From Prorocentrum cordatum (taxonomy: Eukaryota), in NCBI GenBank assembly GCA_963575745.1, contig CAUYUJ010000079.1, positions 1 through 64,000 of the forward strand: 64,000 bases of DNA. The letters run 5' to 3'. Shown here piece after piece: positions 18,044 to 64,000 of this stretch. A program made the position numbers and the translations under genes. Under the pieces are notes generated by a model, which searched no databases, had not been told where the DNA came from, and worked only from the letters and a program-made list of their open reading frames with translations. Positions within the stretch are counted from its first letter, which is position 1. Every line of letters starts with the position of its first letter.

Positions 18044-18065
18044 CTTGAGCCAAAATGGCTACGGA
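18044..18065 (-). other. Perfect dinoflagellate spliced leader (DinoSL) sequence in genomic DNA
   Basis: The plus strand reads CTTGAGCCAAAATGGCTACGGA, the reverse complement of TCCGTAGCCATTTTGGCTCAAG (22/22 match to DCCGTAGCCATTTTGGCTCAAG). Confidence 0.97.
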
Positions 18066-28900: not shown

Positions 28901-29047
28901 CTGGTATAGTGTTTTTCCCAACCATCCTGTGGTGTTGGGTCCTCGTTTTGAAGAGACGGTGCCCCGCGTTTCTCCTCCTCCTCCTCGCCCTCCTCCCTCT
29001 TAGGGTTCGCATGCCTCCCCACCACCCATGTCGGCACACCCCTCACA

Positions 29048-30582
29048 CGTTTCGTGGCCCCATAGGGAACCCCACCGAAGGCCCCAGTGGGGGTGTTCGC
29101 ATGCGGTTCCCCCACCCAGGGCAGCGTTTCGTGGCCCCATAGGGAGCTCCACCGAAGGCCCCAGTGGGGGTGTTCGCATGCGGTTCCCCCACCCAGGGCA
29201 GCGTTTCGTGGCCCCATAGGGAGCTCCACCGAAGGCCCCAGTGGGGGTGTTCGCATGCGGTTCCCCCACCCAGGGAGCTCCACCGAAGGCCCCAGTGGGG
29301 TTGTTCGCAGCGGTTCCCCCACCCAGGGCAGCGTTTCGTGGCCCAATAGGGAGCTCCACCGAAGGCCCCAGTGGGGGTGTTCGCATGCGGTTCCCCCACC
29401 CAGGGCAGCGTTTCGTGGCCCCATAGGGAGCTCCACCGAAGGCCCCAGTGGGGGTGTTCGCATGCGGTTCCCCCACCCAGGGCAGCGTTTCGTGGCCCCA
29501 TATAGGGAGCTCCACCGAAGGCCCCAGTGGGGGTGTTCGCATGCGGTTCCCCCACCCAGGGCAGCGTTTCGTAGCCCCATAGGGAGCTCCACCGAAGGCC
29601 CCAGTGGGGGTGTTCGCATGCGGTTCCCCCACCCAGGGCAGCGTTTCGTGGCCCCATAGGGAGCTCCACCGAAGGCCCCAGTGGGGGTGTTCGCATGCGG
29701 TTCCCCCACCCAGGGCAGCGTTTCGTAGCCCCATAGGGAGCTCCACCGAAGGCCCAGTGTGGGGGTGTTCGCATGCGGTTCCCCCACCCAGGGCAGCGTT
29801 TCGTGGCCCCATAGGGAGCTCCACCGAAGGCCCCAGTGGGGGTGTTCGCATGCGGTTCCCCCACCCAGGGCAGCGTTTCGTAGCCCCATAGGGAGCTCCA
29901 CCGAAGGCCCCAGTGGGGGTGTTCGCATGCGGTTCCCCCACCCAGGGCAGCGTTTCGTGGCCCCATAGGGAGCTCCACCGAAGGCCCCAGTGGGGGTGTT
30001 CGCATGCGGTTCCCCCACCCAGGGCAGCGTTTCGTAGCCCCATAGGGAGCTCCACCGAAGGCCCCAGTGGGGGTGTTCGCATGCGGTTCCCCCACCCAGG
30101 GCAGCGTTTCGTGGCCCCATAGGGAGCTCCACCGAAGGCCCCAGTGGGGGTGTTCGCATGCGGTTTCCCCCACCCAGGGCAGCGTTTCGTAGCCCCATAG
30201 GGAGCTCCACCGAAGGCCCCAGTGGGGGTGTTCGCATGCGGTTCCCCCACCCAGGGCAGCGTTTCGTGGCCCCATAGGGAGCTCCACCGAAGGCCCCAGT
30301 GGGGGTGTTCGCATGCGGTTCCCCCACCCAGGGCAGCGTTTCGTGGCCCCATAGGGAGCTCCACCGAAGGCCCCAGTGGGGGTGTTCGCATGCGGTTCCC
30401 CCACCCAGGGCAGCGTTTCGTGGCCCCATAGGGAGCTCCACCGAAGGCCCCAGTGGGGGTGTTCGCATGCGGTTCCCCCACCCAGGGCAGCGTTTCGTAG
30501 CCCCATAGGGAGCTCCACCGAAGGCCCAGTGGGGGTGTTCGCATGCGGTTCCCCCACCCAGGGCAGCGTTTCGTGGTCCCAT
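29048..30582. repeat. 77-bp minisatellite, ~20 near-identical units
   Basis: Unit CAGGGCAGCGTTTCGTGGCCCCATAGGGAGCTCCACCGAAGGCCCCAGTGGGGGTGTTCGCATGCGGTTCCCCCACC; degenerate relatives at ~31150-31320 (inverted) and ~34100-34320. Confidence 0.97.
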
Positions 30583-31318
30583 GGATGGGGCTATGGGGGG
30601 CACCCTAGGACACAGGTTTGCCTGTCCCCCACCCAGCATCACCAAGGAAAGCGTTGCGAGGAGGAGGAGGGGAGGAGAAGGAGGAGGAGGAGGAGGAGGA
30701 GGAGGAGGAGGAGGAGGAGGAGGAGGAGGAGGTGAGAGAGGAGGAGGAGGAGGAGGAGTGTCCTTTGGGCACATCTCACAGGCTTCGTTGCCTCATTGGG
30801 AGCTTCACCTGAGGTCCCAGTGGCGGAACTCGCCTGGCGGCCAAGTGGCGGAGGCCGCGTGGTGGCGACCTCGTCTTTGTCTTCGGCGTATGGAGGACGC
30901 TTCCGGGCCCCGGGGCCATCAGAAATCGTTCCGGGGGAGAGGGGGGAGGAGGAGGAGGAGGGGGAGGAGGAGGGGGGGGAGGAGGGGGAGGAGGAGGAGG
31001 AGGAGGAGGAGGAGGAGGAGGAGGAGGAGGAGCAGGAGGAGGAGGAGGCGGAGGGGGAGGAGGAGAGGGGGGGGAGGAGGTGGGGGCCGATAACGGCAGG
31101 GCAGACCTGGCGAAGGACCCAACCATATGCAATTGTGAGTAACGCGTTGTGGGTGCCGCTTTCGGTGGGCCCCGAAACGCGTGAGGGGCGTGCCGTAATG
31201 GGTTGAGGGAACGCAAGCGGGCGGTCCCACTGGGGCCTCCGGTGGAGCTTTCTGTGGCGCCGCGGAACGCTGTACTGGGTGGGGGGGGACGCATGCGGGC
31301 GGTGCCACCGGGGGGCTT

Positions 31319-31386: not shown

Positions 31387-31730
31387 CGATGATGATGACG
31401 ACGACGACGACGACGTCGACGACGACGACGACGACGACGAAGATGACGATGCCGACGATGCCGAGAGGAGGAGGAGGATGAGGGAGAAGGGGAGAGGAGG
31501 GAGGAGAGAGCAGGGAGGAGGAGGCAGGAGGAGGAGGTGGAGGCTCGCGTGCTGCCAGCTCGGCTGGAGTCCTCGGCTGACGGCGCAGAAAACTGGCCAG
31601 CTTGGACCCGGGAGGGGTCCGAGGATCGATTTCCAGCGGGTGCTGGCCCAGGGTGGCGCGAAGGGGGTGGCCTTCCAAGAAGCCAAGGGGGGGTTCTTGG
31701 AGGGGCTCGGAAGAACGAGGGAGTGACGAC

Positions 31731-31782
<52 letters not shown>

Positions 31783-31789
31783 GTGATGG

Positions 31790-31822
<33 letters not shown>

Positions 31823-31942
31823 CGATGACGATGGCGATGGCGATGAAGACGATGATGATGATGATGATGATGATGATGAGGATGAGGATGACGATGACGA
31901 CGACAACGACGATGACGATGACGACGATGCCGATGACGATGC

Positions 31943-31978
<36 letters not shown>

Positions 31979-32129
31979 CGATGATAATGATGATGGCGAT
32001 GATGATGACGACGACGATGATGATGGTAATGATGATGACGACGGCGACGTCGACGACGACGATGATGATGATGACGACGACGAATACGATGGCTACGATT
32101 CGGATTCAGACTATCACGACGGCGGTGAC

Positions 32130-32160
<31 letters not shown>

Positions 32161-32414
32161 ATGACGACGACGATGATGATGATGATGATGATGATGATGA
32201 CGACGACGATGATGATGATGATAATGATGATGATGGTGACTACGACGGTGACGGTGATGATGACGATAACGATGACGGTGATGATGATGATGATGCTGAT
32301 GATGATGATGATGATGATGACGATGATGATGATGATGATGATGATGACTACGGTGGTGACGGTGATGGTGACGATGACGATGACGGTGACGATGACGATG
32401 ATGACGATTATGAC

Positions 32415-32458
<44 letters not shown>

Positions 32459-32483
32459 CGATGATGATGATGACGATGATGAT
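31319..32483. repeat. (GAT/GAC)n microsatellite blocks
   Basis: Read directly (31319-31460 and 31724-32483). Confidence 0.95.
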
Positions 32484-32656
32484 CACGGGGAGGCGGAGGA
32501 AGAGGCACAGGGAGAGGGAGAGGGAGGAGGCTGCGCAACTGTTTTGTCTCAAGCCCGGGGCGGGGTCGCTCCCCCGCCACACGACCCCGAGACGAACCCC
32601 GCTCGTTGCTGGGACTCCCTCCGGGGACGACCGGCACGAGTCGCGGGTGACTCTGG

Positions 32657-33997
32657 ATGTCGGTGCGGATGGCTCCCGCGGATGCTCTGGATTTGACTTG
32701 CGACATCCTGGGGTGCCGCGAGGAGTTTCCTATGCAGCGGGCTGGTGTCGACTGTCCTATTAGTGATCTCTTGAAGGACCTCTGCTCCGCCGAAGGCGTC
32801 ACCCCAGCTTTCAGGCGCTTCTGGAGCCACAGTGTGGCTTACCAGAAATACAGCAACGACGTGGGTGATTGGGTAGATAGGACGACACAGGTTGATAAGA
32901 TGCTAATCCTCAGGGAACGCAAGCTGAATTACGAGGAGAACGACGCATGCACCCTGTTGAATCTGGATTCGGGCCGGCGGATGTCAAAGCACGAGAGCCG
33001 ACACCGGAGAATCTTCTGCGCTACGATGAGCCTCGTGAACTCGCGGGAATTCTGTGTGCATGTCAACGACCAGACCCGCGGCGAGGAGAACGTCAAAGGT
33101 TCTCGGATCATCCAGCTGGCCCAGGACTTCACCGGTGAACCTTTTACGGATAGTTTCGACAGGCGCTCCTTCTACCTTGGCCCTGCGGAAAAAGAGGACC
33201 GGAAACGCTCTCGCCTGGAAGCCGTCCTCAGCACTGAAGGAAAATGTGCGCTGACGCTCAAGGCCGGGCCGAGCGGGGTGCCTTTCCGGAAGCCTTTCTG
33301 CATCGCCCGGAGCCGCGCTTACGGGGGCTTGTTCGGAAAGAACACGGTCGCCCTGTACACCCTGCTTCTCGCGGAGGAGCCGGCCGGCGGCTTTCAAAAG
33401 GAGGGCGGCTGCGTCCCCGGGCCCGGCGCCCGGTCCGGGCTGCAGTTCTTGAAAGGCCGTTCCTTGGGCATGGGCGGCGGCTCCACGTGCTGCGGGGTCC
33501 TCTCTGACGAATTCGACGATGCCGTCAAGGACTACAAGCAGCTTCGCACGCGGCTGCTCACGGTGAAGCGGCGCTACGAGGCCTGCGCGAGGGAGGCTAC
33601 GCTGCCGGGGGAGCGCGACTTCTGGACTCGCCTGGCCAACAGGATGGCGCTGTGGCGCGGGTGCGACGACTTGCGCCTGCAATTCCGGCTGTGCGAGACG
33701 TCCAAGGTGGCCGGGATGGTGCTCGCGAGCCGCGGCCGGTGGCGAGCGGGGGCGGGCCCGCGAGACGCGCCCCAGCGCGAGGACGGCGACGGCGACGCGC
33801 TGGGCGACGAGGACAACGACGAGCCCGCCGCCGCCGCGGGCGCCCCCCCCGACGCACTCCGGCTCCTGCTCGACGCCCTGCGCGACCGCGAGGACTCCGA
33901 GGGCCAGCCGCAGCGGCGCGGCCGCACGCGGCCGGACTACGCCGAGAAGAAGCTTGAGCGGGCCGCGCTCAAGCGCGCGCGCTCTTCTCCCGGGTAG
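32657..33997 (+). CDS. aGPT-PPLase1 / 5-hmdU DNA kinase helical-domain-like protein (putative amino acid:DNA transferase, thymidine hypermodification family), 446 aa, intronless
   Basis: Ordered motifs W..SVAYQKYSN....DRTTQ, IF...SLVN, FTDSF, GGLF, VPGPGARSGL and LQFRLCETSK match the family pattern N-x-R-xx-DR-x-T ... GPGAxxGL ... LCExxK. Complex sequence; relict SL and paired motif upstream. Confidence 0.7.
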   Translation: MSVRMAPADALDLTCDILGCREEFPMQRAGVDCPISDLLKDLCSAEGVTPAFRRFWSHSVAYQKYSNDVGDWVDRTTQVDKMLILRERKLNYEENDACTLLNLDSGRRMSKHESRHRRIFCATMSLVNSREFCVHVNDQTRGEENVKGSRIIQLAQDFTGEPFTDSFDRRSFYLGPAEKEDRKRSRLEAVLSTEGKCALTLKAGPSGVPFRKPFCIARSRAYGGLFGKNTVALYTLLLAEEPAGGFQKEGGCVPGPGARSGLQFLKGRSLGMGGGSTCCGVLSDEFDDAVKDYKQLRTRLLTVKRRYEACAREATLPGERDFWTRLANRMALWRGCDDLRLQFRLCETSKVAGMVLASRGRWRAGAGPRDAPQREDGDGDALGDEDNDEPAAAAGAPPDALRLLLDALRDREDSEGQPQRRGRTRPDYAEKKLERAALKRARSSPG

Positions 33998-34339: not shown

Positions 34340-35430
34340 GCGTGGATGGAAATTCGTGGAGAGTTTTCGAGTGCGTAGAAGGGCAAGACCATCGCGAGTT
34401 TGTTTGAAATTGTTTTCGGCGGCTCGTTGGGGCGCTCGCCTTGCGCACGCGCTATCGGACTCTCGCACGTGGGTCGGTTGCTCAGAAGGACAGGGCCATC
34501 GCGAAATTTTTGAAACTGCGTTCTGCGCTCGTTGGAGCGTTCGCTTTGCGCTCGCGCGTTCTGATGGTCGCGTGTTGGCTGGCGGGGGGGGCAGCGCGGG
34601 AGAGGGTGGAGATGCGTTGAGAGTGTTCGAGTGCGTAGAAGGACAAGACCATCGCGATTTTTGAAATTGTTGTCGGGGGCTCGTTGGGGCGTTCGCACTG
34701 CGCATGCGCTATCGGACTCTCGCGCGTGGGTCGGTGGCTCAGAAGGACAGGACCATCGCGAAATTTTGAAATTGTGTTCTGCGCTCGTTGGGGCGTTCGC
34801 TTTGCGCTCGCGTGTTCAGGGGGTCGCGCGTTGGCTCGTGGGGAGGAAAGCGCGGGATTGTATGGAAATTCGTTAAGATTTTTCAGATGCGTGGAAGGAC
34901 AAGACCATCGCGATTTTTTGAAATTGTTTTTTGGGGTTCGTCGGGCCGTTCGCATTGCGCGCGCGCTATCGGACTGTCGCACGTGGATCGGGGGCTCAGA
35001 AGGACAGGGCCATCGCGAAATTTCGAAACTGCGTTCTGCGCTCGTCGGAGCGTTCGCTTTGCGCTCGCGTGTTCAGGGGGTCGCGCGTTGGCTGGTGAGG
35101 AGGAAAGCGCGGGATTGAATGGAAATCCGGTAAGATTTTTCAGATGCGTAGAAGGACAAGACCATCGCGATTTCTTGAAATTGTCGTCGGGGGTGCGTTG
35201 GGTGGCCGCCTCGCGGATGCGCTACCGGACCGTCGCCAGTAGGTCGTTGGCTTAGAAAGATAGCGGCATCGCGAAATTTATTTGGGATTGTGTTTTGCGT
35301 TCGTTGGAGCGTTCGCTCTGCGCGCGCGCGTGTTCTGTGGGTCGGACGTTGGCCGGTGGGGAGGAAAGCCCGGGAGTGGGCGGAAATTCGCCGGGAGTTT
35401 TTGAGTGCGTAGAAGAAAAGACCATCGCGG
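34340..35430. repeat. ~258-bp tandem repeat (~4 units, each made of two related subunits)
   Basis: TGCGT(A/G)GAAGG(A/G)CAAGACCATCGCG-type anchors at ~34370, 34629, 34885, 35143 and 35403; AGAAGGACAGGGCCATCGCGAAATTT-type anchors in between. Confidence 0.9.
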
Positions 35431-39036: not shown

Positions 39037-39867
39037 GGCGCGCGGGCTCCGACGTCGCCGCGGGGCGGACGACCCGCGCGCGTCGCCGGGACTCCTCAGG
39101 GACGACCGGCGCGCGTCGCGGGGACTCTTGCGCTGCGCATGTCATCGGCCGCCGGCCTTTTTCGTCTGCGCGCCGCGGACGGCCCCCCCGCGCGTTGCCG
39201 GGGCGCTCGCGCGCTGCTCTGTCCGGCGCCTGGCTCGTTGTGAGCCGCTTGCTTCTGTTCTGCCCCGCGCCGCGGACGACCCGCGCGCGTCGCCGGGACT
39301 CCTCCGGGACGACCGGCGCGCGTCGCGGGGACTCCGCGGCGCGCTCTGCCAAGAGCTGCCAGCTTGGGCGTCTTCCGCAAAAAGCTGCTGCCGGATTTCC
39401 CTGGGTCTCTGAGGGGGGCGCGTTCGCCGTGGCGGCGCGTGGGCACCCTCCCCGCGATCGCCCGTCGCTCGCCGCGGATTATCTTGGAAGCTCGGGAGGC
39501 GGCCCTGGGATCCAGAGCCATCGTTTACATATCGGGTGTCGGGAGATTTCCACATTCTCGCCTGCTCAGCGTGGACTGCCGAGATCGCTTCGAGATCGCG
39601 TCGAGAGGACAGGCCACCCCAGGAAATATCCAAGGCGATTGAGAGACGGCCCGGAGGGGGGCTCGAGAACCCGCGAGACGGCGCCAGCGTCGCCGAAGTC
39701 TTCCGTCGCCATTCGGGATCAGGAGCGCGAGGTGCCCCGCTGTTTCTCGCTCGGAACGAGTCGCGGGGACTCCGCGCGGCGCCGGCGCTTCCACCAGGAC
39801 GACCCTCGCTGGTTGCTGGGACTCCCTCCGGGGACGACCGGCGCGAGTCGAGGGGGCTCCGGGCGGC

Positions 39868-42680
39868 ATGGCGCTCGGCGGGTCGGGGTCCTGGGCGGCG
39901 CGCCTGCGGGCGCATGCTGGGTGCGAGGACGCCCTGGCGGGAGTGGGGCTGCAGACGGCGGCGGGCCAAGCAGGGTACGAGAGCAGCCTGCTCTCGGTGC
40001 CAGGCTTCCTCCAGGCCCACGTCGCGCGCCAGTGGTTCCACGAGCTGGCGAGCATCGCGCATCGGGACGCAGTCTTCATCGGCCGCAGCCCGGAGACGCC
40101 GTCCACGTTCGTCGACCCGTTGCCGTGGAGGTACCGCACGGCGCAGTACTTCCGCGAGAAGTGTATCTGCAAATGCGACTACGCAGGCCAGCCTTGAACG
40201 ACCCCCCCTCGCTCCTCCGGGCGCGTCCCCGCGCCGCCCCCCCCCCACCCCCCATCGCTGCCGTCGCCTCCCGCGCTTCCTCCGCAGGCACCGCCAAGCA
40301 CTCCTCGCACACGTACGGCCCGGCCAGTTTCTTTTGGAAGGTCGAGGATTTCTTGATGGAGGCCATGGGGCTCGCGTCGCGCGAGGAGGTCCCAGACCTC
40401 TGGGTCGTCAATGTTTACGACGACCCCGCCAGGCACATCCGTCGTCGTCGTCGTCGCTGGCGCCGTCGTCGTCGTCGTCGCCATCGTCGTCGCCGTCGTC
40501 GCCGTCGATCGTTCGAGGTCGGAGGGCCGAAGACTTTGGAAGTTCTCGAAGCGTCGGCGCCGGGCTCGCGCGGACCCCCCGCGAGCCCGGCGCCGAACAG
40601 CAGCCCTCGGGGGCTCGAGGTGCACGCCGCCGCCGCCGCTGCCGTCGTCGTCGTCGTCGTCGTCGTGGTCGCGGTTCTCGCCCACCAGGCACATCGCCTG
40701 GCACAGCGACGACGACGACCTCTTCGACGCGATCCGCAGCCCCGCGGACATCGTGTCGCTCTCCCTCGGCGCCGACGGCCTGTTCGCTTTCCAGGTCAAG
40801 CCGAGGGGCCCGCTGGCCAGCGACGTGCTCGGCGCGCAGGAGCGGGGCATCCGCGGCGCCGTGGCTCTGGCGTCGGGGACGCTGGCTCTAATGTCCGGGC
40901 GTTTCCAGCGGGACTTCCAGCACGCGACCATCCCGAGCTGCGAGTGGGACACAAGCTGGGCCGCGAGCTTGCCGGCGAGGCAGCGCTGCCGCGTCGCGCC
41001 GGGTCCAGGGGCGCCCCGCATCAACCTCACTGGCCGGTGGGTGCGGAGGTCCGAGGGGAAAGAAGCGACGCCGCCCTCGCCACTTGGGGATGGGGCGGGG
41101 GTGGGGGGGGCACTTCCCACGAGGAGGTCCACGATGCCTTTCCGGGCTGGAACTCGAGGGTGTCTCTCGAACGGGAGGGGGGCGAATGCAACGCCACGAG
41201 GGAGAATCCGCCTGGGCCTTACGCCCTGGTGATGGCGGCGTCGCTTTCCCCCGTTCCCTCGAAGGCAGAACGCGGCGTGCCCGAGGCACAAGGGCCCTTC
41301 GCCGATGGCGGCGTTCCTGCAGCCAGCGCCAGCGCCCGCGCCGGCGCGCCCGCCCGCGCCCCCTCCGGGCGACGGCGAGGCGGTGCAGCGGCTTCAGGCG
41401 GAGGTGGGCGGGCTGCGGGCGCAGGTAGCGACGCTCACCGCCGACGTTGACCGCAGGCGGTCCGCGGAGCTGGACTACCTACAGTCATTTCGCGAGCTCC
41501 AGGGCAAGCTGCTGCGAGCCGAGGAGGAGCTGGCGAACGCGCAGGCTACCGCCCAGGTGAGCGACGCCTGAAAACTTAGAGATCCGACGTCATGAAAAAT
41601 TCGTGACGGCGGTTTTTCGTTGCTTTCAGTCCCGGAGGCCCTCAACGGGCCCTTGGACCGTCAAAAATCAATTCAGGGCGAGAAACCGGCCCCGGGGAAG
41701 TCGTCGAGACCTCCGGGGACTTCCGGGGGCCACGCGTCGAAAAGTTCATGACATCGAATGTCTGGGACTGGGTCGACCGCGCGGACATGGCGCGCGAGTT
41801 GCCCGCGTAAGGTCGCACGGAGCGCCGCGCCGCTGCCCCGTGCTCCGCGGAATTGACTGGCCCGCGCGAGCCACCGCGCAGGGTGCAGCGCCGCCGCGCA
41901 TGAGACCCCGTCTTCTCCGTCGCTCAGGCAGACGCGCGCGGGCCCGCCGCCGCCTCTGCGCCGGCGAGCAGCGCGGCGGGCGAGGTTCCTGGGGCTGCCG
42001 GTGACGGGGGGCTCTCGCAGGGCGTGGCTCGCGTCGCGGCTTTGCGCGCCTCCTCCAACGCCGACTTGCTCCTGCACGTCGCGGATCTCTGGGAGGGGCT
42101 CCGGGGCTTCACCGTCGCGGAGCAGGCCTCGCAGAACGACCCGCTCTTCAGGCTCGGCCGCGGCACCCGGGAGTCGCGCACCCACCGCGTCTTGATGCCC
42201 TACGGTTGCCTCCAGGCCTGCTTGCGGAGCGTGGCCTCGCGCCACGTGGAGGCGCTCCGCGAGTTCGGGTGGTTCGCCTTCGACCTGGAGCCGGGCGTCG
42301 CCGAGTCGCTCTGGCGCTTGAAGGGGGGGCGCGCGTCGGAGCGGTTGCAGGCGACGACCGTCGAGGGGGGGCCCTGGGACGGCTCCGAGACGCACCTCCG
42401 GATCATCGCGTTCGAGCTGGGCTCCGCGTTCGACGAGGGGGTGGCGCGCTGCCTTCCGCGCAAGCCGCCTGCCCGCCGCGGCGGTCGCGAGGCAGCGGCT
42501 GAGGCCGCGCACCTTGCCTGGTGCGCACTGCTGCGCGCCGACAAGGTTCGGCAGTGGGAGGACCTGGAGCAGGGGCGGATGGTTCTCCCGGCTCTGCCCC
42601 TCGAGTGGGGCCCGGTAGACTCCCTGGAGCGGATGCCGTGCGCTGTGTGGCTGCACGTCCCAAAGAGAGTCTGCGGGTAG
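39868..42680 (+). CDS. alkB: AlkB-family (ALKBH2/3-like) 2OG-Fe(II) dioxygenase fused to a coiled coil and an unknown C-terminal domain; exons 39868-40186, 40288-40432, 40689-41048, 41265-41556, 41928-42680 (622 aa)
   Basis: The spliced frame is continuous and gives VNVY, WHSDDD (HxD), IVSLSLGA, GTLALMSG.FQ..FQH and RINLTGR. All introns end AG|G with GC/GC/GT/GT donors and correct phases. Confidence 0.85.
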
Positions 42681-43375
42681 ACGCTCTTCTCTGGCCGCGT
42701 CAGGGGACGACCCCCGCCAGTCGCCGGGACTCCCTCGCGGGACGACCGGCGCTGGTCGGGGGGGCTCCGCCCGGCGAGGCTTGGACCGCTCTGCAGAGGA
42801 CGACCCCCGCCAGTCGCCGGGACTCCCTCGCGGGACGACCGGCGCTGGTCGGGGGGACTCCATCCCCGCGGCAGACCCCGCCAGTGGCCGCGCCGCTCGC
42901 TCCTGCCGAAAAAGGAACACTCCGCACACCCATCGCTCTCGAGCCGCCCGCGTAAGATTGTCGCGCGCGCGGTCTCAACACCGCGCCGCGCGCCTCGCAA
43001 GCTAACTGCGTGGGCCACCGGGTAAGGTCGCAGCGTCCTCGTTCCCTGAAGGGTGCTGCTCACGTTATACCAGTGTCGTTCGGTCCACCTCGCCGCTGCG
43101 CCTGGCGCCTGGGTCGCGGGTCAGAGACCCCTTACTCGGGTGTCGCGGGATGCTTATCGGGTGCCCCCTGGGGAGGCGACGAGGGCATGCGTGAGGGTAA
43201 TTCTTGATCGGGTACCATGGGGGCTTCCTGGAGGCCTCGCGGAGCAAGGGGGAGGAGGAGGAGGAGGAGGAGGAAGCGTCGACGCCGTCGTGGCTCAAGC
43301 CTTGTTCGGGTTCGAGTTTGTGGCGGCACTTCCGGCCCTTCCAGCGAGGTGCTGAGTTCTTCCCCGCAGTATCTC

Positions 43376-45570: not shown

Positions 45571-46517
45571 CAGGATGGCGCGGGTGCTCGGCAGGCCGCC
45601 CGGGCAAGCCCTGCGCGTCGCCGCGATCCTTCCCTGGAGGGCGAGCGGCGCGCGTCGGGGCGATCTCAGGCTGGTCGACGTGCCCATAGGCTAGCGGCGC
45701 AGAGCGCTGCTCTGTTCCACCCCGCGCTGCCCGCTGCCTTGGCCAAGACATATTTCCCCCCCTTGGAGGGCGTATTTTGCAGTCGGCAGGGCATTATCTA
45801 GCTTCGTGGCCCAGAGTAGCGGCCGATGCGCCGCGTGTCCTGGACTTCCACTGGTAGGGCAGCGTCCTGCAGCAAGAGTTTAAGTATTGTGGACGACCCT
45901 CGCGCGTTGCCAGGACCCTCCTCCGGGGGCGACTGACACGCGTCGACGGGACTCCACAGTCCGATCGGAGCGCCCTTGCCGCGCGCCCGCAGCCGCTCGC
46001 CCTCGCCCTGCAAGGCAACCACAAATGCGCGCCCGGCTTGGAGCGGGATCTCTGGAGGTGCGGAGAGAAGAAGGAAGGGAGGAAGGAGGCGGACACGACA
46101 CGGCGGCGCCCGGGTTTAGGTCACCGCGGGAGAGGCGGGCAGGGACGCAACGCACAGGGGAGATTAGGAGACGGTCGGGGGATCACGGCGCAGGGGGCGG
46201 ACACGCGATAAAGCGGCAAACAGTGTTAGCGCCAAACGAGTAGGTCTGGCAATTGCGCCGCAATGGAAATCTCCCGGACCTTGCCATCCATAGGTACAGT
46301 GGAGCCTATTTCGGGCTCTCCCTGCCTGGGGACATCTTGGCTGGCCTCTTGGGGCCATCCTGGAGCACATCGGTCAAACCGGCATTAATCTGCAGGCGCC
46401 CGTGGGGCCGTCGTGGAGCAGGCCTCGCGGGGCCCCTGTCGAGGCTTTCGTCTTGCTCGAGCCCGCGAGTGCCTCAGCCGGCGCGCCCCGCCGACAACCC
46501 GCGGAAGACCAGGCGCC

Positions 46518-47162: not shown

Positions 47163-48045
47163 GGCCTCGCCGGGAAGCCTCCCCGCCCTTTCTCCTCGCG
47201 CCGCGGCCCTGCGGTGAGGCGCGCGCGCCGCGCGGCGTCAGTCGACGCCCAGGACGACCCTCGCGCGTTGATGGGATCCCATTCGGGTGGGCGACCGTCA
47301 CGCGTCGGGGGGACTCCTCACCTGTTTTCGCCCACGCAGTTTTTTTCTACCCCTCTGTCCGCGACGCAGGGGGGCCCGTGCGTCTGCCTGCCGCCTTGCT
47401 GTGTCTAGCTGCCGACCTTTTCAACCACCCGTGGTGAGCGACCTCCGCGTGTCCCTGGAGTTTCGCCAGGATGGGCAGCGCGGCCGCCCGCGTGAGGTTA
47501 GCCGCATGCCGATTGCGTAGACGTTTGCCTCGAAGCGCGGCCGACCTGCGCGCGTCGCCGGAACTCCTGCGGGACGCCCGGCGCGCGTCGCGGGGACTCC
47601 GCGCGTTATTCTGCCTGGGGCCGCCGCCGTCGGGTCGCGAGGAGAAAAAAGGGGAGAGCGATTAGGGAAGGAAAGAGGCACGAAACGACGGCGGTCAGGG
47701 CTCGGGCCACCGCAGGACAGTCAGGCAAGAGCAGTGCACGACGGCACCTGGGAGAGAGGAGACCCCTTCCGCTAACTTTGTGTCAAAAGTTTGTTGTTTT
47801 TGAAAGAAGCGGGGTCTGGGTCGAGCCCTGAGATTTCCGGCAAACTCCCCCCCCCCCTTCCGTGTCCGTAAACATGGAGGCCCGAGCAGGCGCCGCCGCG
47901 CGTTCCGGCGCGCGCCCACCGCCATCTTCGACGGACGACCCCCGCTCGTGGACGGGACTCCCCGCGCGGGACGACCTTCCCGAGTCGGGGGGACTCTGGC
48001 TCGCACGAGCGGGCCATCGCCGCGCGCCATCGGGGCCCCGCGCGG

Positions 48046-55058: not shown

Positions 55059-55721
55059 GTCGCCAGGAGGAGGAGGAGGAGGAGGAGGAGGAGGAGGAGG
55101 AGCGGAGAAGAGGGCAGGCGGGGGGAGAAGGAAATGGCGCAGGACGGAGGATCTCGAATGGGGGAGAGAGGAGAGGGGTGAGAGGAGAGAGGTGGGTGGA
55201 GGGAAAGGTCAGGACGCATGGGAGGGAAGAGAAGAAGGTACGGGAGGAGCCAGGCATAAGGGAAATGGAGGAGGGAGAGCACCATCCCAGCCAAACCAGT
55301 ATCGACCCCCCCGTCATCCCTGTCAAATTATGCCGCGCGCACACGCGTTGATATTTAAAGACATGTCCCATGATCCCATGAGGCCCCCAAGAGGGCCCCA
55401 AGACGGTGCAAGATGGCCTCCAAGACGTCTAAGATAGCCCAGGATGGACTCCACGACGGCCAAGATGGACTCCAAGACGGCCAGGATGGCCTCCAAGACG
55501 GCCAGGATGGCTCTATCTGGCATCCAAGACGGTCCAAGGTGCTCTCCAAGACAGCCTTATGAGGGGGGCGGCAGGGGAAAGCTCGTCATTGTCTTCGTTC
55601 AGGCACGGCCCCTGGCAGACGCTGGAGCTTTTCCCCCCGCAAGGCGAGGAAGGCGAATCGTGCGCCGCGGCGCGGGGGACGGGGGGCACACGTCAGGGGT
55701 TTCACCCCCCCCTCTCTCGAG

Positions 55722-58700
55722 GAGCTGCGCGCCCTGGCAAGCGCCTGCGTGCGCGGAGCGCCGCTGCCCGCGGAGGACGTCGGTGGCGCGGCGCCCGCGC
55801 CCGCCCGCGTGGACCGCTGGTCCCCGCACGCCTTCTTGGACGCGTTCCTCGAGATGCACTGGGTGGACTTCAGGCTGGGGAGGCACGGGGACGCGAGCGA
55901 GGCGCTGTCGTTCGTCGTGGATGACACGCAGGGTCTCCGCCGTCTCTTCCAGACAGGATGCGGCGAGGAGGTCATGCTGAGGCTGCCAGCTTTCGTGGAC
56001 GGGGCAGACGACGGCGACGACGCCTTGTCGCCGCAGGACTTCTTCCTCGACGGGGGCGCCCAGAGATTGGACGCGCGAGAGCTGCTCCGCCGCGGCGTCT
56101 CCATGGGCGGGCGACTGCGATCGAAGCCCGAGCTGCTGGCGGTCCACGTGCCCCAGAGATGGGAGCGAGGCGACGGCACGGCGCTCTTCCTCGGCAGCTG
56201 CGACATCGCGCCCTACTGGAGCGAGCTCCCAGAGGTGGTTCTGAGGGCGGGGGGGGAAGACGTCGCATACCGCCTGCGCGCCTACGTGCAGTACATCCTG
56301 CCCGAGGGATCGGACGTCATCCCATCCCACGTCCTGAGTGACCCGCAGGGCCACTTCGTGGCCCACTTCGAGGAGGACGGGAGCTGGTACACTGCGGACG
56401 ACCTGGGCGATCGGCCGCACGTGGTCCGGTGGGCGCCGGGCACCGAGCACAAGATGCCATTCGTGATCTTCCTCGAGAGGATGGACTCCAGGGCGGCCGG
56501 CGCCGATGCCTGCCCGTGGCCGCCCGGGCCAGTCGTCGACGACGCGGAGGGCCTGGGCGACGGCGGCGACGTCGACGCGGACGGCGAGGACAGCTTCGGC
56601 CCCGACGGAGCGCCCGAGGAGGAGGGCGGGGCCGGCGACGCCAGCCATTCGGGCGCACGGAAGCGGCCCGCGGCGTCCGCGAGGAGCGGCGCCCCTGCCA
56701 AGAAGCGGCTCCGCCTCCGAGGGAAGCAGAGCCGCGACGGGAGGCAGCAGATCCGCGATGGGAGGCAGCAGAGCCGCGACGGGAGGCAGCAGAGCCGCGA
56801 CGGGAGGCAGCAGAGCCGCGCTGGGTGGCTGCAGAAGGATAAGCAGCGCGGTTGCAAGCCGGAGGATGTGCTCCGGCAGGGGCGGAAGCCGAAGGGCAAG
56901 GGCGACAACGCCGACGGGTCCAGGCAGGACGCCCAGAACAACGCCACCGCGCCTGTCCTGCGCAGCAGCAGGGAGGCGAAGAGCTTGCAGACCGCCAGCG
57001 AGGAGCGCCGGAAGTGCGGAGACCTCTTCTTGCTCTTGCACCTGATGGAGCCGCTGGCCGCTGCCGATGACCTGCTGGAGCACTACCCTGATTTCTTCGT
57101 CTACGCGGGCGACGACTGCACCCGCCGATGGGCGACGTTCCTGCAAGCGCCCGATCGGTCCGACAAGTTGGCCGGCAGGTTGCGGGAAGCGCTCGGGGTC
57201 ACGGAGAACGAAATATCCGACGCCAAGCGCCGACTGGAGAGCGGGGAGTGGCACGGGCACCACGTCGCGGAGCTCCTGGACGAGCGCCTGGACTCCGCCC
57301 ACGGCGCCCACTCCGTGGCGGCCACAGTCAGGCTGGCGGCGGGCGACGCGTCGGCCGCGCTGGGCGACGGCAACCCGCTGAGGGCGCACCTGGCGGAGGC
57401 GTGGCAGCGCAGACCCTGCAACCGTGGGCCGCCCCGGCACGCCGCCATGCCTGCCCGCCTTCGGGATCGCTCCGAGTGGTTCCAGTGCCCCGCGCCTGCC
57501 CTGCAGTATGCCTGCCGCTTGTGCGAGGCCGAGTTCCCCAACAGGGAGGCGTTCAAGGCGCACCAGGGCAGAGTCCACGGAGGGCAGCGGTGGTACCAGG
57601 CGCAGTACGTGGCGCGGTGCGAACTGGAGCCCTACCAGCCGTCGCCGACCGAGGAGCGCCAGGCGAGCGAGCGGCGGGGAATTGCGCTCGACCCCCCCGC
57701 CCTTTCCCCCTGGGATAGTCTCTTAGCGCTGGCGCTCCCAGCGTCTGCGTTAAGGGCATCGAGTTTCTCCGGGCGGGGTGACCGCCTAGATCTGGGGGTC
57801 GGGCTGCACTTCCTGGTCGCGCCGCAGGTTGTTGCCAGGTTCCACGTCTCCCAGTGCTGCGCCACCGTGGAACCCGTGGACGAGACGTTCGTCCCGAAGC
57901 CCGAACCGGAGGTGCAGAAGCAGCTGCTCCACGCGGCGATCGTCGGCAGCATCGCTGGCAGGATCGGGCAGGGGGGCTTCGCGGAGGAGATCTCCCGGCA
58001 GGCGGCCGGCGCGGCGGAGTCGGCGGCCCGCGATCAGGCCGCGTGCCAGGCGAGGGAGCCCCGTGCTTTCCGGGCCTGCGTCTGCTGCGCCATGCAGCAG
58101 TGGTCCGAGAACCTCCACTCGGAGTTCCTGGTCGGGGACAAGTGCGGCATAAAAAACCGGGCCCTGTTCGCGGAATGCCTGTCGGCCGAGTGGTATCATC
58201 AACGATGGCCCCTCATACCGCGCGAGGAGCTGATGTCGTCTGCCGTGGACTTCCCACACGAAGACAGCGAGGGCTCGCCGACGTGCACGAAGATACTCCT
58301 GCACAAGAGGCGCGTGCCGCCAGAGGCGCTCACAGGGGAAGCGCCCGTGAGAGTGTGCGAAGCTTGCAGGAGAGACCTGTGGTCTGATCATCCCAAGGTG
58401 CCGCTCATGGCCCTGGTGAACGACCTCTGGCTGGGCCGCCACCACCCGCTGCTCAGGAAGGCCGCTCTCGCGCACCAGATGCTGCTCGCGCTGGGCCGCG
58501 TCGTGTCCACGAAGATCTACCTGTCCAGCAAGGGCGCCGACAAGGCCGTCCGGCAGGAGCAGGAGTCATGGAGGCAGAAGTTCCTGCAGTACGCCATGCA
58601 GGGCACCGCCATCGTGTTCGGGAACGGGAACGTGGACCACGCGATGCGGAGCTTCCCGCCGGAGCCCGACATGCTCAGGGACACGTTCGTGGCCGTCTTC

Positions 58701-61700
58701 GCGGGCGCCGACGACGACGAGGACGGCGCCCCCCTGACAGAGGAGCAGAAGCAGGAGAGAGCCTTGAGAGCCATGAGGGAGGAGGTGGCGTTGCACGTCG
58801 ACAAGGCGGAGTACGACGCACAGGCGCGGTTGTTGAAGCAGCACAACTACGTGTACAATGACCCGGGCGTGCAGTACCGATCGGACCTCGTGGACAGGTT
58901 CCCCCCGCAGCCTGGCGTGCCCGACTGCATGCTGGCCTGCGCGAAGTATGTCCCCACGGACGCGGCGTTGGACGACGTTGCGCAAGCGCAAGGGCCCGCC
59001 TCGGCCACCACTGGCGCGCAGGCCGACATGGGCGCGGCCGCCGGGGACGCGCAGGAACTGACCAAGTGGCTGTCCGTCCTCGAGGACCACATGGACGACG
59101 TCAGCGAGATCACGTCCCTGCCGGCACTGCAGGGCATGCTCGAGAGGATGGAGAGCCAGGCGGGGCGCGTGGTGGCCAACGAGCTGATGTCCCGGCTCGA
59201 GAACGAGAGAGGCGAGGATGGGGCGCTGCAGCTGGACGAGATCGGGCGTCACCGCCTGCGGGATCTCTGCAAGGAGTTCCACGCGCGCTGTCGGAAGATC
59301 TCCCCGGGGGAAGACGTGGCGAAGCTGCACTGGCGCGTCCAGAGGCTGGAGACGAACAACTGCCAGGCGGGAGAGGACGCGGGCGACCTGGCGCGACCTG
59401 CAGGAGTCGCGGGGACTCCCGCCGAGGACGACCCGCGCTCCTTGCAGGAACCGCCCGGCCCAGACGGCCAGCGAAAGGCGAGGCTTGTGGTGCCCACTTC
59501 GAAGAAGGCGGAGACCTGGTGGGACCCGAAGTACTGGTCGATTGCCAGGCCCACGGACTTCTGCTACGGGGACTGCGCATGGGGCCTCGGCGATAAGGAG
59601 GGTCGGCTCTGCTTCAGCGTGGCGCACTTCATCCAGAATCTTCTCACGCGGGAGGAGATGGAGTATGACGTTCCCGGCGACGAGGAGAAGTACGTGGCCA
59701 GGCCCATCAATCGTTTCCGGAGCTCCTGGTACGACGTGCACCTGCTGCACTCCTTCTGGAGAGTTACGGAGACGACCAACAGCACCTACACTTTCATGAA
59801 GACGCCCGGGGCGTTCGGGGCCGCTCGCGCCTGCGCAGACATCACGCCAGAGATGATCGAGCAGGTGCAGCTCAGGGCGCAGCAGACGGGCGGGAAGGCA
59901 ACGCTGCACGGCATCCTCAAGGACAAGGACACCCCCAACAAGGTGCGCCAGGCCTTCGCCACCCTGGGCCAGGCCACTGCCAGTCAAGTCGGGTCCGACG
60001 GACACAGGCGCGAGCTGCGCGGAGAGGGCGAGGCGTATACCCTGCGCTTTGGCCCGCCCGTCCTGTTCGTCACCCCGAATCTGGCAGACACCAAGCAGCC
60101 CCTGATCCTCATCGTGCAGGGGGAGGAGTACAACTTCAACGCCGACCTGTCCGAGGCGGAGCAGGTCACGTTGAGGGAGATGTCGCAGCGCCTCGCCGCG
60201 GATCCCGTGGGCCAGGCCGTGGTATTCGAGCTGATGATGAGGCTGTTTTTCGTCCACGTGCTCGGCCTGCGCCGGGAGACCGTCGGGTGGCGGAGAGGAG
60301 AAGTTCGACAGATTTCGGAGCACTGGGTCTCCGACGGCGTGGCGGCCGACCTCATGGGCGTCCCCACTGTGTTCGGCCCCCTCGCGGCCGCCTTCGGCCC
60401 TGTGGAGGCCCAGGGCCGCGGCTCGCTGCACCCGCACATCCTCATCTGGCTGCTGCAGGGTCAGCTGCGCGTGCTCCTCGACATGCTGCAGCGCGACCAG
60501 GCGCGCTTCCAGGAGCGCTTGAACCTGTGGATGCGGCAAGTGGTGCAGGCCGTCGTCGCCACTCAGCAGAGCGCTGTGGAACTGCTGCCCCTGCATCTGC
60601 AGGGAGGCGAGAACAAGTGCGGAGCCGAGGTGCCGCCGCTCCCGTTCGGGCCCAACGAGAAGCGGCATTGCAGGGCCGACGGCGGCAAGGAGACAGCGAC
60701 GCCAGAGCAGCTCGGTAAGGAAGGCGAAAAAAGAGAGGATCTGTATTACTACGATCCCTCGTCAGACGACTACCACGAGGCCATTCGCGCCGATCTGCCG
60801 CTGCGCGACACCAATGGCGGGATCGTGGGAGACGCGGCGACGTGGACAGAGCAGCGGGCCGCGGAGACCAAGAATTACTGGGCGCAGCCGCTCTCCAGCA
60901 GCGCCTCCGGCATTTTCCCGAGGTACCGCGGCGGATGCACCCTGGCAGGGTCCCTCCCGAGCGACGAGTGGATTCGCGAGATGTGCCACGACGTGCGCCA
61001 GCTCGTCATCGGTTGCGGCATCCACGTCTGCAGCCCCTCCTGCTACAAATACCATTCGGACAAAGCGCGCGGCTCGCAGATCTGCCGCCACAACTTCTAC
61101 AACCTGGTCACATTGTGCACATGGCCCGAGGATGGGGACTCCCAAGAGTGCCGGCTCCGGACGCGCGGGAAGGCGCTGCGTGGCTGCATCGGCATATTCC
61201 TGGAGACGGAGTACGGCATGGCCGGGCGCATCATTACCTTCCAGCTCCACCCTGGGGAGACCTCCACCAAGTACGCGGCGGTCGTCTCGGCGCGGTGCAA
61301 CGTGGACGTGCAGGACATGAGACGGGTACTGCCCCCGCGCCTGTGGATGGATCCGTTAGAGCTGGAACCTCCAGCGAACGAGGGGGACCGCAATAGCTAT
61401 AACCATGGCCTGTACCCTCAGCGATATGCCAACTTCTCAGTGGGCGCCCGAGAGGATTGGGGGTGGTTCCAGCACCTGAACACCACGTCCGAGGAGAAGT
61501 GGGAGCTCGTCGTAGTCACCGACTGGCACAAGATCTACAGAGAGCTCGCGAACTGCGTCAGCCCGATCGTGGACGGTGACGACGCTGCGCGGGCCGATCT
61601 CCAACGCGACCTGGAGCGGCACGCGATCGCCACCTTCGTGGATGCTCACAACACGAGCTATTACGTGAATTCGTACACCACGAAGGTGAACCCCAGCATG

Positions 61701-64000
61701 GACGACGTGCTCTGCAAGCTCCTCGACGGCGTGCGCCGCCTCAAGAGCCAGTGGAACGACAGGGAGGTGCAGGGCGCGGGCGACGCCAGCGACGAGCCCC
61801 AGTTGACCGCTGCAGCGAAGCGCAAGGAGGATTTCAAGCGCACGCTGCAGGTGTTGTCCCGCTTCGAGACCTGCTTCCGCAGGGCCTCCTGGAAGAGCGG
61901 CTGCGAGATGGTCTTCCCCATGCTCTTCGGGCACCTCTCCTTCATGACGCACCGCTGCTGGAAGGTGTCCATGCGGAAGTCCATCTACCTCGCCGCGGAG
62001 TCCTGGCGCAGGCGGCACGGCCACGCCGACACCGCGGAAAGCCCACCCGCCGCCTCGATCACGTACGCGGTACCCGGCACTGGACAGCAGGTCGCGATGC
62101 CGGGGTGGAGCGAGGTGCAGCGCGAGGGCGAGACAGTGTACGTCAGCCCCGACGGCGAGGAGTTCGACACGATCGAGTACGCGCACCAAGCGTTCCAGAT
62201 TGCGAACGCCAGCGGCGGCTCGCTGCGCGACGTGACTAAGGCTTTGAACAAGATGCGGGAAGGCGAGGAAGAAGAGCAGCCCGATGCACCGGGGCCGACC
62301 GTCGAGGGCCTCGCGCAGGGCAAGTTCAGGGGCGCCGTGTTGAGCCAGCACGACGACTGGATGCATCGCGGAGATCACCCTATTGTCCGAGACATGAGCT
62401 TGTACGTCTACAGCATCTGGGTGTACCGCGTGGAACTGCCGTTGCACGCCCTTCCGGCCGGGGAGCTGGAGCCCGAGGGCAGCGGGGGGCGCACCCTGCA
62501 CGTGGACATCGCCTTCGACTCGTCCTACTCGGCGGCGCGGAACTGGACGCAGAGGCTGGCCGCCGAGCCGCGCATCCCGAAGCCGGACGGCTTCCAGTTC
62601 GTGAGCGCGGAGTCGAACGTGGAGACGCACTACCTCATGAAGTCTGTGCTGCTGCGACCGGTGCACCTGCCGGACGCCGACGGGCCCAACGACACGAAGG
62701 AGCTGCGCTACCTCCGCGCGTACGAGCACCTGTGCGCGGCGCCGGAGGGCGAGCCGGAGTGGCCGGCGCAGCCGGCGGGGGAGGGCGTCTCGGGCCCGTT
62801 CCAGCGCGGGTGGGAGTCGTTCGCCACCACCCAGGAGCAGCTGGCGAAGACGGCGCGGGCGAAGTGCCTCAAGAATGACGTGGGGTCGTGGGCAACTCCC
62901 AGCATCTGGAACACGCAGGAGGTCGAGGCCGCGCTGCGCGAGAAGCACAGCGACCGCGGCGAGGACGTGCAGCCTCCTTGTCAGTGCGCCCAGTGCACGG
63001 AAATGGGCAACTGGCTGGACAGTATGCTGACGGTGCAGGAGTACCTGGCCCTGGAGAGCACGAAGACCGCGGCCAACTTCGACGGCATCTCCAAGGCGAG
63101 GGCTTCGAAGCCGAAGAGGCCGCAGAAGGACGACGTGCAGGTCGCCGAGGCCCCCGTGTTCCAGGAGGGCGCCGAGGACTCGGGTGCGGGCGCCGCGCAG
63201 GTGGAGGCCCAGGGCATCCGTGCTCAGGAAGGCCTCGCGAAGCTGGGCGCCAACACGGCACTGGAGCATCACTTCGACCCCGAGACGCTAGGGCAGATCT
63301 TGCGCTTCGACACCGCCGAGCGCACGCAGGCCTTCGTGAAGGAACTCAAGAAGGCCGCTACGATGATGGAGAACGGCGCGCTGCCCGGGCCGACTGACGC
63401 CGACGCATCGCGGCGCGCTGCCCGCGCCCTGAAGGACAACGTCCTCGCTCCGTTCAGGGCCCTGCGCGACCTCGACGCAGACGAGCTGAAGAGCTTGGTG
63501 GAGACCCAGCGGAAAAGGTTCGCCAAGGGAGGCACGATGGATGCGGACGTGCCCGTGGCCGACGCACCCGCGCCGGACGACGTCGGCGCAGCGGCCGCTG
63601 GCGCGATGCCAGCCGAGGCGGCGCAGGCACGGTGGGAGCCTTCGGAGGAGATGCAGCGGCCCAGCGACTTCGTCAAGCTCCTCGTTACAAAGTTCGAGGA
63701 CGGCGTGGTCAACCCGAGAACGGGGCGGCAGGAGCCCCGCCCTCTGAAGCCAGACCAGGCCCTGTTCGTCACGGCGTTCGCGAACGCCTGCAACGTGGTG
63801 TGGGACGAGGAGCAGAAGATCGAGGACGGCAGCATGGCCAAGCACGCCAAGCGGAAGACGTTCCAGTTCCTGCTCCTCGGCCAGGGCGGCAGCGGGAAGA
63901 CCGCCATGGTGCAGGAGATCGTGCTGCCGGCCATGGACGCACTGTTCCCTGTGGAACCGGGCAAGGCGAAGTCCACGCAGATAGTCTGCGCGAAGTGGTC
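55722..64000 (+). CDS. RepHel gene exons 2-3 (probable intron 57663-57827): USP His box, C2H2 finger, DUF6570-like region, HUH Rep (Helitron_like_N) and start of a PIF1-type helicase; runs off the window
   Basis: One frame with no stop to the window end. Motifs: GHFVAHF...WYTADD (56349-56402), CRLC...HQGRVH, CEAC...PLMALVNDLWLG, FGPPVLFVTPN (~60050-60080), VEAQGRGSLHPHILIW (60402-60449), YYVNSYTTK (61659-61685), GQGGSGKT (63879-63902). Confidence 0.9.
56722..56820 (+). repeat. In-frame 21-bp tandem repeat encoding GRQQSRD units
   Basis: GGGAGGCAGCAGAGCCGCGAC, about 4.5 copies, within the RepHel linker. Confidence 0.85.

Follow-up and report, generated by a model that had tools for sequence, protein, structure and literature searches.

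The 64,000-nucleotide window analysed here, positions 1 to 64,000 of contig CAUYUJ010000079.1 from Prorocentrum cordatum, carries on its forward strand an open reading frame (ORF) of 446 amino acids, P0001, which runs from an ATG to a stop codon (32657-33997) with no interruption, as an initial annotation made from the sequence alone had described. It lies in a co-oriented cluster (32.5-64 kb, + strand) in which the P0001 gene, an AlkB-like gene, other ORFs and a Helitron Rep/Hel gene (RepHel) each stand behind one to three copies of a hairpin-forming repeat (Table 1). The DNA of the window is about 61% guanine and cytosine (GC), and a 396-amino-acid antisense ORF overlaps P0001; because GC-rich DNA yields many long chance ORFs, coding status was judged by relatives. 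An exhaustive phmmer search of 1.84 billion representative proteins returned 38 relatives at E<=1e-3, 25 at <=1e-10 and 10 at <=1e-30, and on this comparative evidence P0001 is a real coding sequence rather than a chance ORF of GC-rich DNA. The sole relative carrying a name is an 'unnamed protein product' of Prorocentrum cordatum with 40% identity, and a sequence in ENA, P0040, is a 90% identical paralog or ortholog. P0001 is thus an intron-less, intact gene and a member of a small family, and the ATG at 32657 is its likely start, since an MSxR N-terminus is common to the homologs. No further copy of the P0001 domain was found in the window, where the remaining matches were low-complexity tails (E>=0.13). 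A comparison of four sequencing runs gave one DNA contig, 1421 nt long and showing 10 differences, and one run that can only be guessed to be RNA contained contigs from a relative at 92-94%; a metagenome scan with alignment A3 gave 142 pattern matches, none of them a relative.

Alignment of P0001 with 16 relatives (alignment A1) reveals the conserved blocks KLNxEExDxxT, NSRxF, FTxSFDxR, GKNxxA, PGPGAxSG and QFRxCExSK. Two motifs singled out in the initial annotation, GPGAxxGL and LCExxK, correspond to residues 255-262 and 345-350 and are invariant across the family; within LCETSK, C346 is conserved in 18 of 18 sequences, E347 in 16 of 18 and K350 in 17 of 17. A third, N..DRTT, is present as letters (N67...D74-R-T-T77) but is not conserved in A1, and it was rejected as a family motif in favour of a chance resemblance; hhalign instead pairs the N/RELD/T residues of the phage proteins discussed below with KLNxEExDxxT at residues 89-99, in which E94, D96 and T99 are identical to phage-invariant residues. 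The C-terminal end of P0001 consists of an acidic, low-confidence tract followed by a K/R cluster, also found at the C-terminal end in 8 of 18 homologs reaching that far, which is read here as a putative nuclear localisation signal.

The initial annotation had likened P0001 to aGPT-PPLase1, a member of the phage aGPT-Pplase family that was reportedly defined by Iyer et al. in 2013. This assignment survives as one of very remote, though very likely, homology to aGPT-Pplase clade 1 (HMUDK_hel), which is indicated by PHROG matches, profile-profile alignment, predicted structure and language-model neighbours but fails at the Pfam threshold. The case is cumulative, because these four kinds of evidence, each weak alone, name one family among tens of thousands. 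An aGPT-Pplase1 is annotated in Sphaerotilus phage SN1 (PMC9476957; record ON165687), and this protein, SN1_020, belongs by its matches to phrog_2396 (9e-109) and to Pfam PF18723 HMUDK_hel (1e-55); the aGPT-Pplase2 next to it matches PF18724 ADDT, and the kinase matches PF18748. P0001 itself gives a single weak PHROGs match, to phrog_2396 (E=0.0031, residues 253-358 on profile positions 230-309). The same profile is matched, each time from position 230, by 3 of 11 family members, namely P0001, P0020 (0.0026) and P0002 (0.074), and the others among the 10 scanned besides P0001 returned nothing, or unrelated PHROGs once each. Among 18 homologs compared with Pfam at E<=1, HMUDK_hel was matched only by P0020 (E=0.039, 13.8 bits), the remaining weak matches being scattered; the gathering threshold of PF18723 is 25 bits, which neither P0001 nor P0020 reaches.

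For profile-profile comparison, a clade-1 profile was assembled from 48 diverse phage sequences, down to approximately 41% identity, translated unchanged from IMG/VR loci. Alignment of 24 family sequences to this profile with hhalign gave a score of 40.9 (P=1.7e-4, probability 49%) over 255 co-linear columns, compared with 21.1 for the reversed alignment, a mean of 13.8 and maximum of 20.0 for 60 column shuffles, and a mean of 29.7 (standard deviation 2.0, maximum 36.8) for 60 motif-preserving shuffles of 15-column blocks, so that the similarity of the sequences to clade 1 is of moderate strength. Among the 60 aligned columns that are at least 90% conserved in the phage proteins, 20 are identical and 6 similar in the dinoflagellate family, and the identical columns are the dinoflagellate family's own invariant sites: D80, E94, D96, T99, N128, T164, K183, G255-P-G257, G261, G267, C346, E347, K350, G360 and R363; L345 is identical as well. 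The shared motifs follow one another in the same order, KLNxEExDxxT, FTxSFDxR, PGPGAxSG and QFRLCExSK of the P0001 family pairing with CNxFRELDxVT, YTGAYMIR, AGPGAxRG and EHxLCEFDK of clade 1. Overall identity is about 14%, and the eukaryotic protein differs from its phage counterparts in about 80 additional residues, which form a beta-hairpin (57-80) and long helices (279-335), and in its acidic tail and K/R cluster. A search of PDB sequences with the A1 profile returned proteasome noise only (E>=0.28).

Structure prediction, which had been proposed as a check, led to the same phage proteins. AlphaFold2 models were obtained for the full-length protein with A1 (predicted local distance difference test, pLDDT, 81.6; predicted template modelling score, pTM, 0.79) and for a core of residues 1-366 with alignment A5 (pLDDT 88.5, pTM 0.85). 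When the full model was compared with BFVD using Foldseek, 7 of the top 9 matches were named HMUDK_hel, Pplase1 or SP10 5-hmdU DNA kinase, from sources including phiRSL1, Lucky3, PhiW-14, SP10 and a Nodularia phage; one unnamed protein in this top 9 had a probability of 0.98, and the best match had E=0.019, a probability of 1.00 and a template modelling (TM) score, normalised to the target, of 0.50. The core model placed HMUDK_hel/Pplase1-type names at ranks 1, 2, 4, 5, 7, 9 and 11, with an unnamed protein at rank 3 (probability 0.99), an ADDT protein at rank 13 and matches of probability <=0.14 in between. Over both models the best BFVD matches lie at E=0.013-0.019 and TM 0.4-0.5. Foldseek against the PDB found nothing at E<=1e-3, its top matches being influenza nucleoproteins with probability <=0.14; the PDB fold neighbours of the P0001 models are AGOG, OGG, gp46 and Mag1, with modest E-values and Z-scores. 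The predicted fold of P0001 is a helix-hairpin-helix (HhH) DNA-glycosylase-like one, and the all-helical proteins of phage clade 1 (SN1_020, the C-terminal domain of SP10 gp186, the PhiW-14 and phiRSL1 proteins and, by inference, M6 gp55) share it. The HhH DNA glycosylases themselves (AGOG, OGG, Mag1/AlkA, EndoIII/NTHL1 and MutY) differ in giving no sequence-profile match with P0001, and the Cys-Glu-x-x-Lys motif of P0001 is, to our knowledge, not known from the HhH-GPD signature. A language-model comparison, made with the Prorocentrum homolog P0041, points to the same family: 23 of its 30 nearest Atlas clusters carry PF18723, with scores of 0.93-0.94 (the Atlas structure of P0041, pLDDT 0.45, was left unused).

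What chemistry this homology allows depends on the division of the phage family into two clades. The P0001 family scored only 16.4 (P=0.35) in hhalign against a profile of 26 clade-2 (ADDT) sequences and has no Pfam match to it, and a direct relation to clade 2 was rejected; clade 1 against clade 2 scored 24.1 (P=0.019). In the latter alignment the cysteine of the clade-2 ETVLCK motif falls on that of clade-1 EHxLCE, and hence on C346 of P0001, so that the cysteine of P0001 aligns with that of clade 2 (PF18724 ADDT; PaMx11 gp46/PUGT, PDB 8z2m) only by way of clade 1. The sequence following it is CE..K in P0001 and CKWK in clade 2, and only clade 2 has demonstrated transferase activity. Phage SP10 makes a glutamyl-thymine. 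In the portion of PMC5889632 that was available, Table 3 lists for this phage a clade-1 domain only, fused to a kinase, and no clade 2, which would make the clade-1 domain the only candidate transferase there. For other phages, the accessible text of PMC8989533 describes a 5-hydroxymethyluracil (5hmU) DNA kinase, 5-HMUDK, that phosphorylates 5hmU in DNA, and clade-2 enzymes that replace the phosphate by glycine, serine or putrescine, a reaction that requires a Cys, whose attack on C6 yields an exocyclic methylene, and a Glu close to it. Within the same text, every enzyme of Table 1 with transferase function belongs to clade 2 (M6 gp51, ViI gp247, PaMx11 gp46 and PhiW-14 gp109). The attachment of amino-acid-derived groups, which the initial annotation had taken as established for the family, therefore holds for clade 2 but is unproven for clade 1, which P0001 resembles. 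Because the family matches clade 1 and not the biochemically proven clade 2, P0001 is no more than a putative transferase.

Upstream of P0001 stands a relict of the dinoflagellate spliced leader (SL), confirmed at 16 of 22 positions where the initial annotation had placed it. In a scan of the window with the 22-nt dinoflagellate SL consensus, 5 sites matched at 16 or more of the 22 positions, where 0.7 would be expected from 30 first-order Markov simulations (at most 2 in any one). One of these is a perfect 22/22 match on the reverse strand, perhaps a copy of an SL gene or the leader of a recent retrogene; together with the nearest named homolog, from Prorocentrum cordatum, it bears out the dinoflagellate setting. 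As the relict SL stands upstream of an intron-less ORF, P0001 has the appearance of a dinoflagellate-type, SL-marked retrogene. The relict is kept in P0040 (8 of 8 translated residues identical), and the translated upstream region of P0040 continues to match the window past it, at 31590-31664 (88% amino acid identity), about 1 kb upstream; because similarity extends upstream of the relict SL, the duplication of P0001 and P0040 took place at the DNA level. Directly upstream of the gene, about 0.9 kb of a (GAT)n-type microsatellite (31600-32480) splits sequence that is contiguous in translated P0040.

The repeat that precedes P0001 is a unit of approximately 78 nt, and base pairing between its two halves gives a 23-bp hairpin. 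Applied without filters to the entire window, a covariance model (R1) recovered 12 full-length copies at E<=1e-11; every one lies on the + strand between 32585 and 59463, the next best match has E=0.011, and the first 32 kb contain no copy. Across nine aligned copies, 95.7% of cells are paired versus 87.0% in shuffles (0 of 500 as high), seven hairpin pairs show compensatory changes (2 of 500 shuffles having as many), and the covariation score is 0.329 versus 0.149 (0 of 500); slid registers pair at 45-53%. Folding of the single sequence before P0001 is unremarkable (RNA z=-1.9, DNA z=-0.46), and since the thermodynamics of a single copy are unexceptional for its GC content, support for the hairpin is drawn from covariation. 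The initial annotation had noted the same paired motif before the AlkB-like and RepHel genes, and the covariance model places copies at both, where plain BLAST had given only a partial match at RepHel; the RepHel copy (59386-59463) lies inside the long open frame, between its DUF6570 region and its Rep domain. Rfam recorded no family within 31-49 kb of the window, and no metagenome contig matched the hairpin when it was searched as a DNA pattern. Its possible roles are those of a cassette signal or recombination signal used by the HUH Rep, or of a structure in the 5'-untranslated region (5'-UTR); if it were part of the mRNA, a 23-bp GC stem so close to the start codon of P0001 would impede scanning.

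The neighbours were characterised by scanning the 95 ORFs of at least 110 amino acids in the window against Pfam. In the Rep/Hel frame, DUF6570 (amino acids 944-1100, 2.3e-11) is followed by Helitron_like_N (amino acids 1434-1628, 1.3e-14) and a helicase Walker A motif at amino acid 2773, and the ORF from ATG 59658, 1447 amino acids to the window end, holds the Rep domain; judged by these domains, RepHel is a genuine Helitron Rep/Hel. About 850 N-terminal residues of the frame lack a Pfam match, and the DUF6570 and Rep/Hel parts may be two genes or one fused gene. In the AlkB-like locus (39702-41450, +), ATG 39868 opens only 109 codons, and since the oxygenase domain lies in another frame, the locus contains an intron or a frameshift. 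The ORFs at 43217-45493 (758 amino acids), 48046-49011 (321 amino acids) and 49276-54687 (1803 amino acids), all on the + strand, belong to no secure family, with only weak OB-fold and UCH Cys-box matches, and could be accessory genes of the unit.

A second line of linkage comes from P0013, a 547-residue family member 40% identical to P0001, whose residues 247-546 share 35% identity (E=5e-45) with the stretch 848-1183 of the RepHel frame. Its sequence places an aGPT-like part and RepHel side by side on the same strand at a second, diverged locus; the RepHel N-terminal segment is present in 1 of 41 family proteins, P0013 itself. The aGPT-like part of P0013 lacks the segment after the HhH-hairpin PGP and part of the N-terminal region, which may reflect decay of the copy or wrong splicing in the gene model that joins it to RepHel. 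The Helitron link proposed in the initial annotation thus gains support from a hairpin common to both genes and from the junction of P0013 with the same RepHel N-terminal region, and the P0001 gene and RepHel probably belong to one mobile or co-mobilised unit.

Table 1. Features of the window, in order of position (SL, spliced leader; aa, amino acids).
Feature	Position	Strand	Remarks
Perfect SL, 22/22	18044-18065	-	SL scan
SL match, 16/22	20388-20409	-	SL scan
Relict SL, 16/22	32532..32553	+	104 nt upstream of P0001 ATG
Hairpin copy	32585..32663	+	77.5 bits, E=3e-18; stem ends ~3 nt before ATG 32657
ORF P0001	32657..33997	+	very likely remote homolog of HMUDK_hel / aGPT-Pplase clade 1; predicted HhH-glycosylase-like fold
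KLNxEExDxxT motif (residues 89-99)	32921..32953	+	aligned to phage CNxFRELDxVT
GPGARSGL (residues 255-262), HhH hairpin	33419..33442	+	G255-P256-G257 and G261 invariant in dinoflagellate and phage families
LCETSK (residues 345-350)	33689..33706	+	aligns with phage clade-1 LCExxK
C-terminal K/R cluster (residues 420-442)	33914..33982	+	putative nuclear localisation signal
Three hairpin copies	39062-39138, 39269-39344, 39792-39869	+	last abuts ATG 39868, AlkB-like locus
Relict SL, 17/22	39702..39723	+	upstream of AlkB-like gene
AlkB-like 2OG-Fe(II) oxygenase ORF	40357..41229	+	PF13532 E=1.3e-9, 39 bits, cutoff 31.2
Two hairpin copies	42700-42777, 42793-42870	+	upstream of 758-aa ORF, ATG 43217
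Two hairpin copies	45597-45676, 45886-45964	+	covariance model
Three hairpin copies	47247-47326, 47534-47609, 47928-48006	+	last 40 nt before ATG 48046, UCH-like ORF
UCH Cys-box ORF, weak match	47872-49008	+	Pfam
Helitron Rep/Hel frame	55563..63998	+	2812 codons open; runs off window end
Hairpin copy	59386-59463	+	62.6 bits, E=2.8e-14; 195 nt before ATG 59658

The explanation that best accommodates these findings, and one that is rather likely to be correct, is that P0001 is an intact clade-1-like homolog in a Helitron-linked cluster that would act on 5hmU, either as such or in an activated form. In dinoflagellates, 5hmU takes the place of 12-68% of T and has been tied to the silencing of transposons, as far as the available text of PMC11572971 describes it, and because the base is both abundant and tied to silencing, action on 5hmU or activated 5hmU is the most economical reading of P0001. 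In the proposed mechanism, whose substrate, chemistry and donor molecule are all putative, as is any need for a kinase, the protein would enter the nucleus via its C-terminal K/R cluster, and the HhH domain would bind DNA and flip out a 5-substituted uracil, either 5hmU or an activated derivative. The Cys346 thiolate would then attack C6, and the group on the C5-methylene would be exchanged, by analogy with clade 2, leaving a derivatised 5hmU as the product. As transposons in dinoflagellates are silenced through 5hmU, such an enzyme, when carried by the element, could alter the mark, rewriting it on or around that element.

A number of points weigh against this reading. The Pfam search suggested with the initial annotation did not yield the expected family, in that P0001 has no match of any kind at E<=10 and the best member, P0020, stays below the 25-bit cutoff. 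The Glu that precedes the cysteine by four positions in clades 1 and 2 is replaced in the P0001 family by a conserved Gln, Q342, with the Glu directly after the Cys (E347) retained. Whereas clade 1 is adjacent or fused to a kinase in thymidine-hypermodifying phages, and stands there in a DNA-modification operon rather than a Helitron-linked cluster, no 5-hmdU DNA kinase was detected by Pfam among the 95 ORFs of the window; a profile of 59 5-HMUDK sequences found nothing better than E=5 in the six-frame translation, and the only convincing match in a Walker-A scan was the helicase motif of RepHel, all in keeping with the initial annotation, which had seen no 5hmU kinase in the window. A distance of 22 kb separates the P0001 gene from RepHel, and the P0013 sequence could result from two gene models merged into one. 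Helitrons begin with a 5' TC and end in a 3' hairpin and CTRR; no such termini were identified in the window, which contains one copy only, and the flanks of the hairpin copies have no common CTRR-like end by eye. The hairpin could instead be a general feature of the gene arrays of this species, and the relict SL suggests that the gene was retroposed from mRNA, whereas the usual gene capture by Helitrons occurs at the DNA level. Because the genes of SN1 and M6 stand in identical order, M6 gp55 can be inferred to belong to clade 1, and M6 lysates without gp55 still gave product according to the part of PMC8989533 available; in the portions of the literature on these phage enzymes that could be consulted, no assay of a clade-1 protein by itself was found.

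Several of these points would be expected if P0001 were instead an ordinary retroposed, trans-spliced host gene of 5hmU or DNA metabolism, with the same homology, in an array that lies beside a Helitron insertion and in which the hairpin is a general intergenic or 5'-UTR element. Relict SLs typical of dinoflagellate retrogenes precede both the P0001 and the AlkB-like gene, the distance to RepHel and the missing termini fit an unrelated insertion, and the putative nuclear localisation signal and intact motifs would suit a host function; co-oriented arrays, moreover, are normal in dinoflagellates by the account in the accessible part of PMC11071213. This explanation nevertheless has to contend with the confinement of the 12 hairpins to 32.5-59.5 kb, their absence from the first 32 kb and the presence of one before the Rep ORF, with a second, diverged locus at which P0013 is joined to the N-terminal region of RepHel, and with the similarity to P0040 about 1 kb upstream of the relict SL, which marks a DNA-level duplication. 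On balance an ordinary host gene appears unlikely.

The phage proteins also permit a non-catalytic role, in which clade 1 is a DNA-binding module that presents 5hmU to a partner or reads the mark, and P0001 a 5hmU reader or adaptor. Such a role would agree with the Pfam name 'kinase helical domain', with the change of Glu to Gln at -4, with the dispensability in vitro of M6 gp55, the presumed clade-1 protein (PMC8989533, in part), and with the fusion of the domain to the kinase in SP10 (available text of PMC5889632; BFVD match F8WQ30). It is harder to reconcile with Cys346, Glu347 and Lys350, which stay nearly invariant even among members sharing only about 25% identity, a pattern that speaks for a chemical role. 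SP10, for which no clade-2 gene is listed, yet makes its glutamyl-thymine. A purely non-catalytic P0001 is judged quite improbable. Least credible of all is an HhH-superfamily DNA glycosylase or lyase, excising for example 5hmU or a damaged base and resembling the phage proteins mainly through a shared fold, which would suit the neighbouring AlkB-like, repair-type oxygenase, but P0001 matches no Pfam glycosylase family at E<=10, every sequence-level signal leads to HMUDK_hel/phrog_2396, and the Lys that bifunctional HhH enzymes carry after the hairpin GxG is missing.

If P0001 is a clade-1-like enzyme acting on 5hmU, it is a concrete candidate that makes further modification of 5hmU in dinoflagellates testable, from a family invisible to Pfam, and it raises the idea of an additional, so far undescribed modification of thymine in their DNA. 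The Helitron Rep/Hel and the repeated, covarying hairpin also suggest that a eukaryotic rolling-circle transposon can carry its accessory genes in a new, cassette-like arrangement. In its most far-reaching form, which we consider a distinctly long shot, this would be a dinoflagellate Helitron with a base-editing kit, comprising a phage-derived, Cys-dependent 5hmU enzyme and an AlkB-like oxygenase, each gene behind a hairpin, that would either turn the 5hmU mark into another, undescribed hypermodified thymine or erase it; if true, it would represent the first phage-type thymidine hypermodification in a eukaryotic nucleus as well as a mechanism of transposon counter-silencing. A comparable association is said to exist in basidiomycetes between TET/JBP genes and Kyakuja-Dileera-Zisupton transposons. 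The likeness lies in a base modifier of phage and bacterial ancestry that is physically associated with a eukaryotic DNA transposon; P0001 differs in transposon class (Helitron), enzyme family and host lineage, and, unlike that case, in a host DNA already rich in the presumed substrate, 5hmU. In the literature consulted, the only enzymes that build on 5hmU in DNA are those of trypanosome base-J glucosylation (PMC11572971, available text) and of the phage kinase/transferase pathway, and homologs of aGPT-Pplase were known earlier from basidiomycete fungi and bacteria, as stated in the accessible part of PMC5889632. Within the partial texts at hand, no published account was found of the P0001 family in dinoflagellates or of its association with Helitrons, and none of the HMUDK literature found concerned eukaryotes.

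The surroundings of the P0001 gene are themselves repetitive, with some 20 copies of a 77-nt tandem repeat at 28953-30695 and, downstream of the gene, three 257-nt repeats at 34402-35171.

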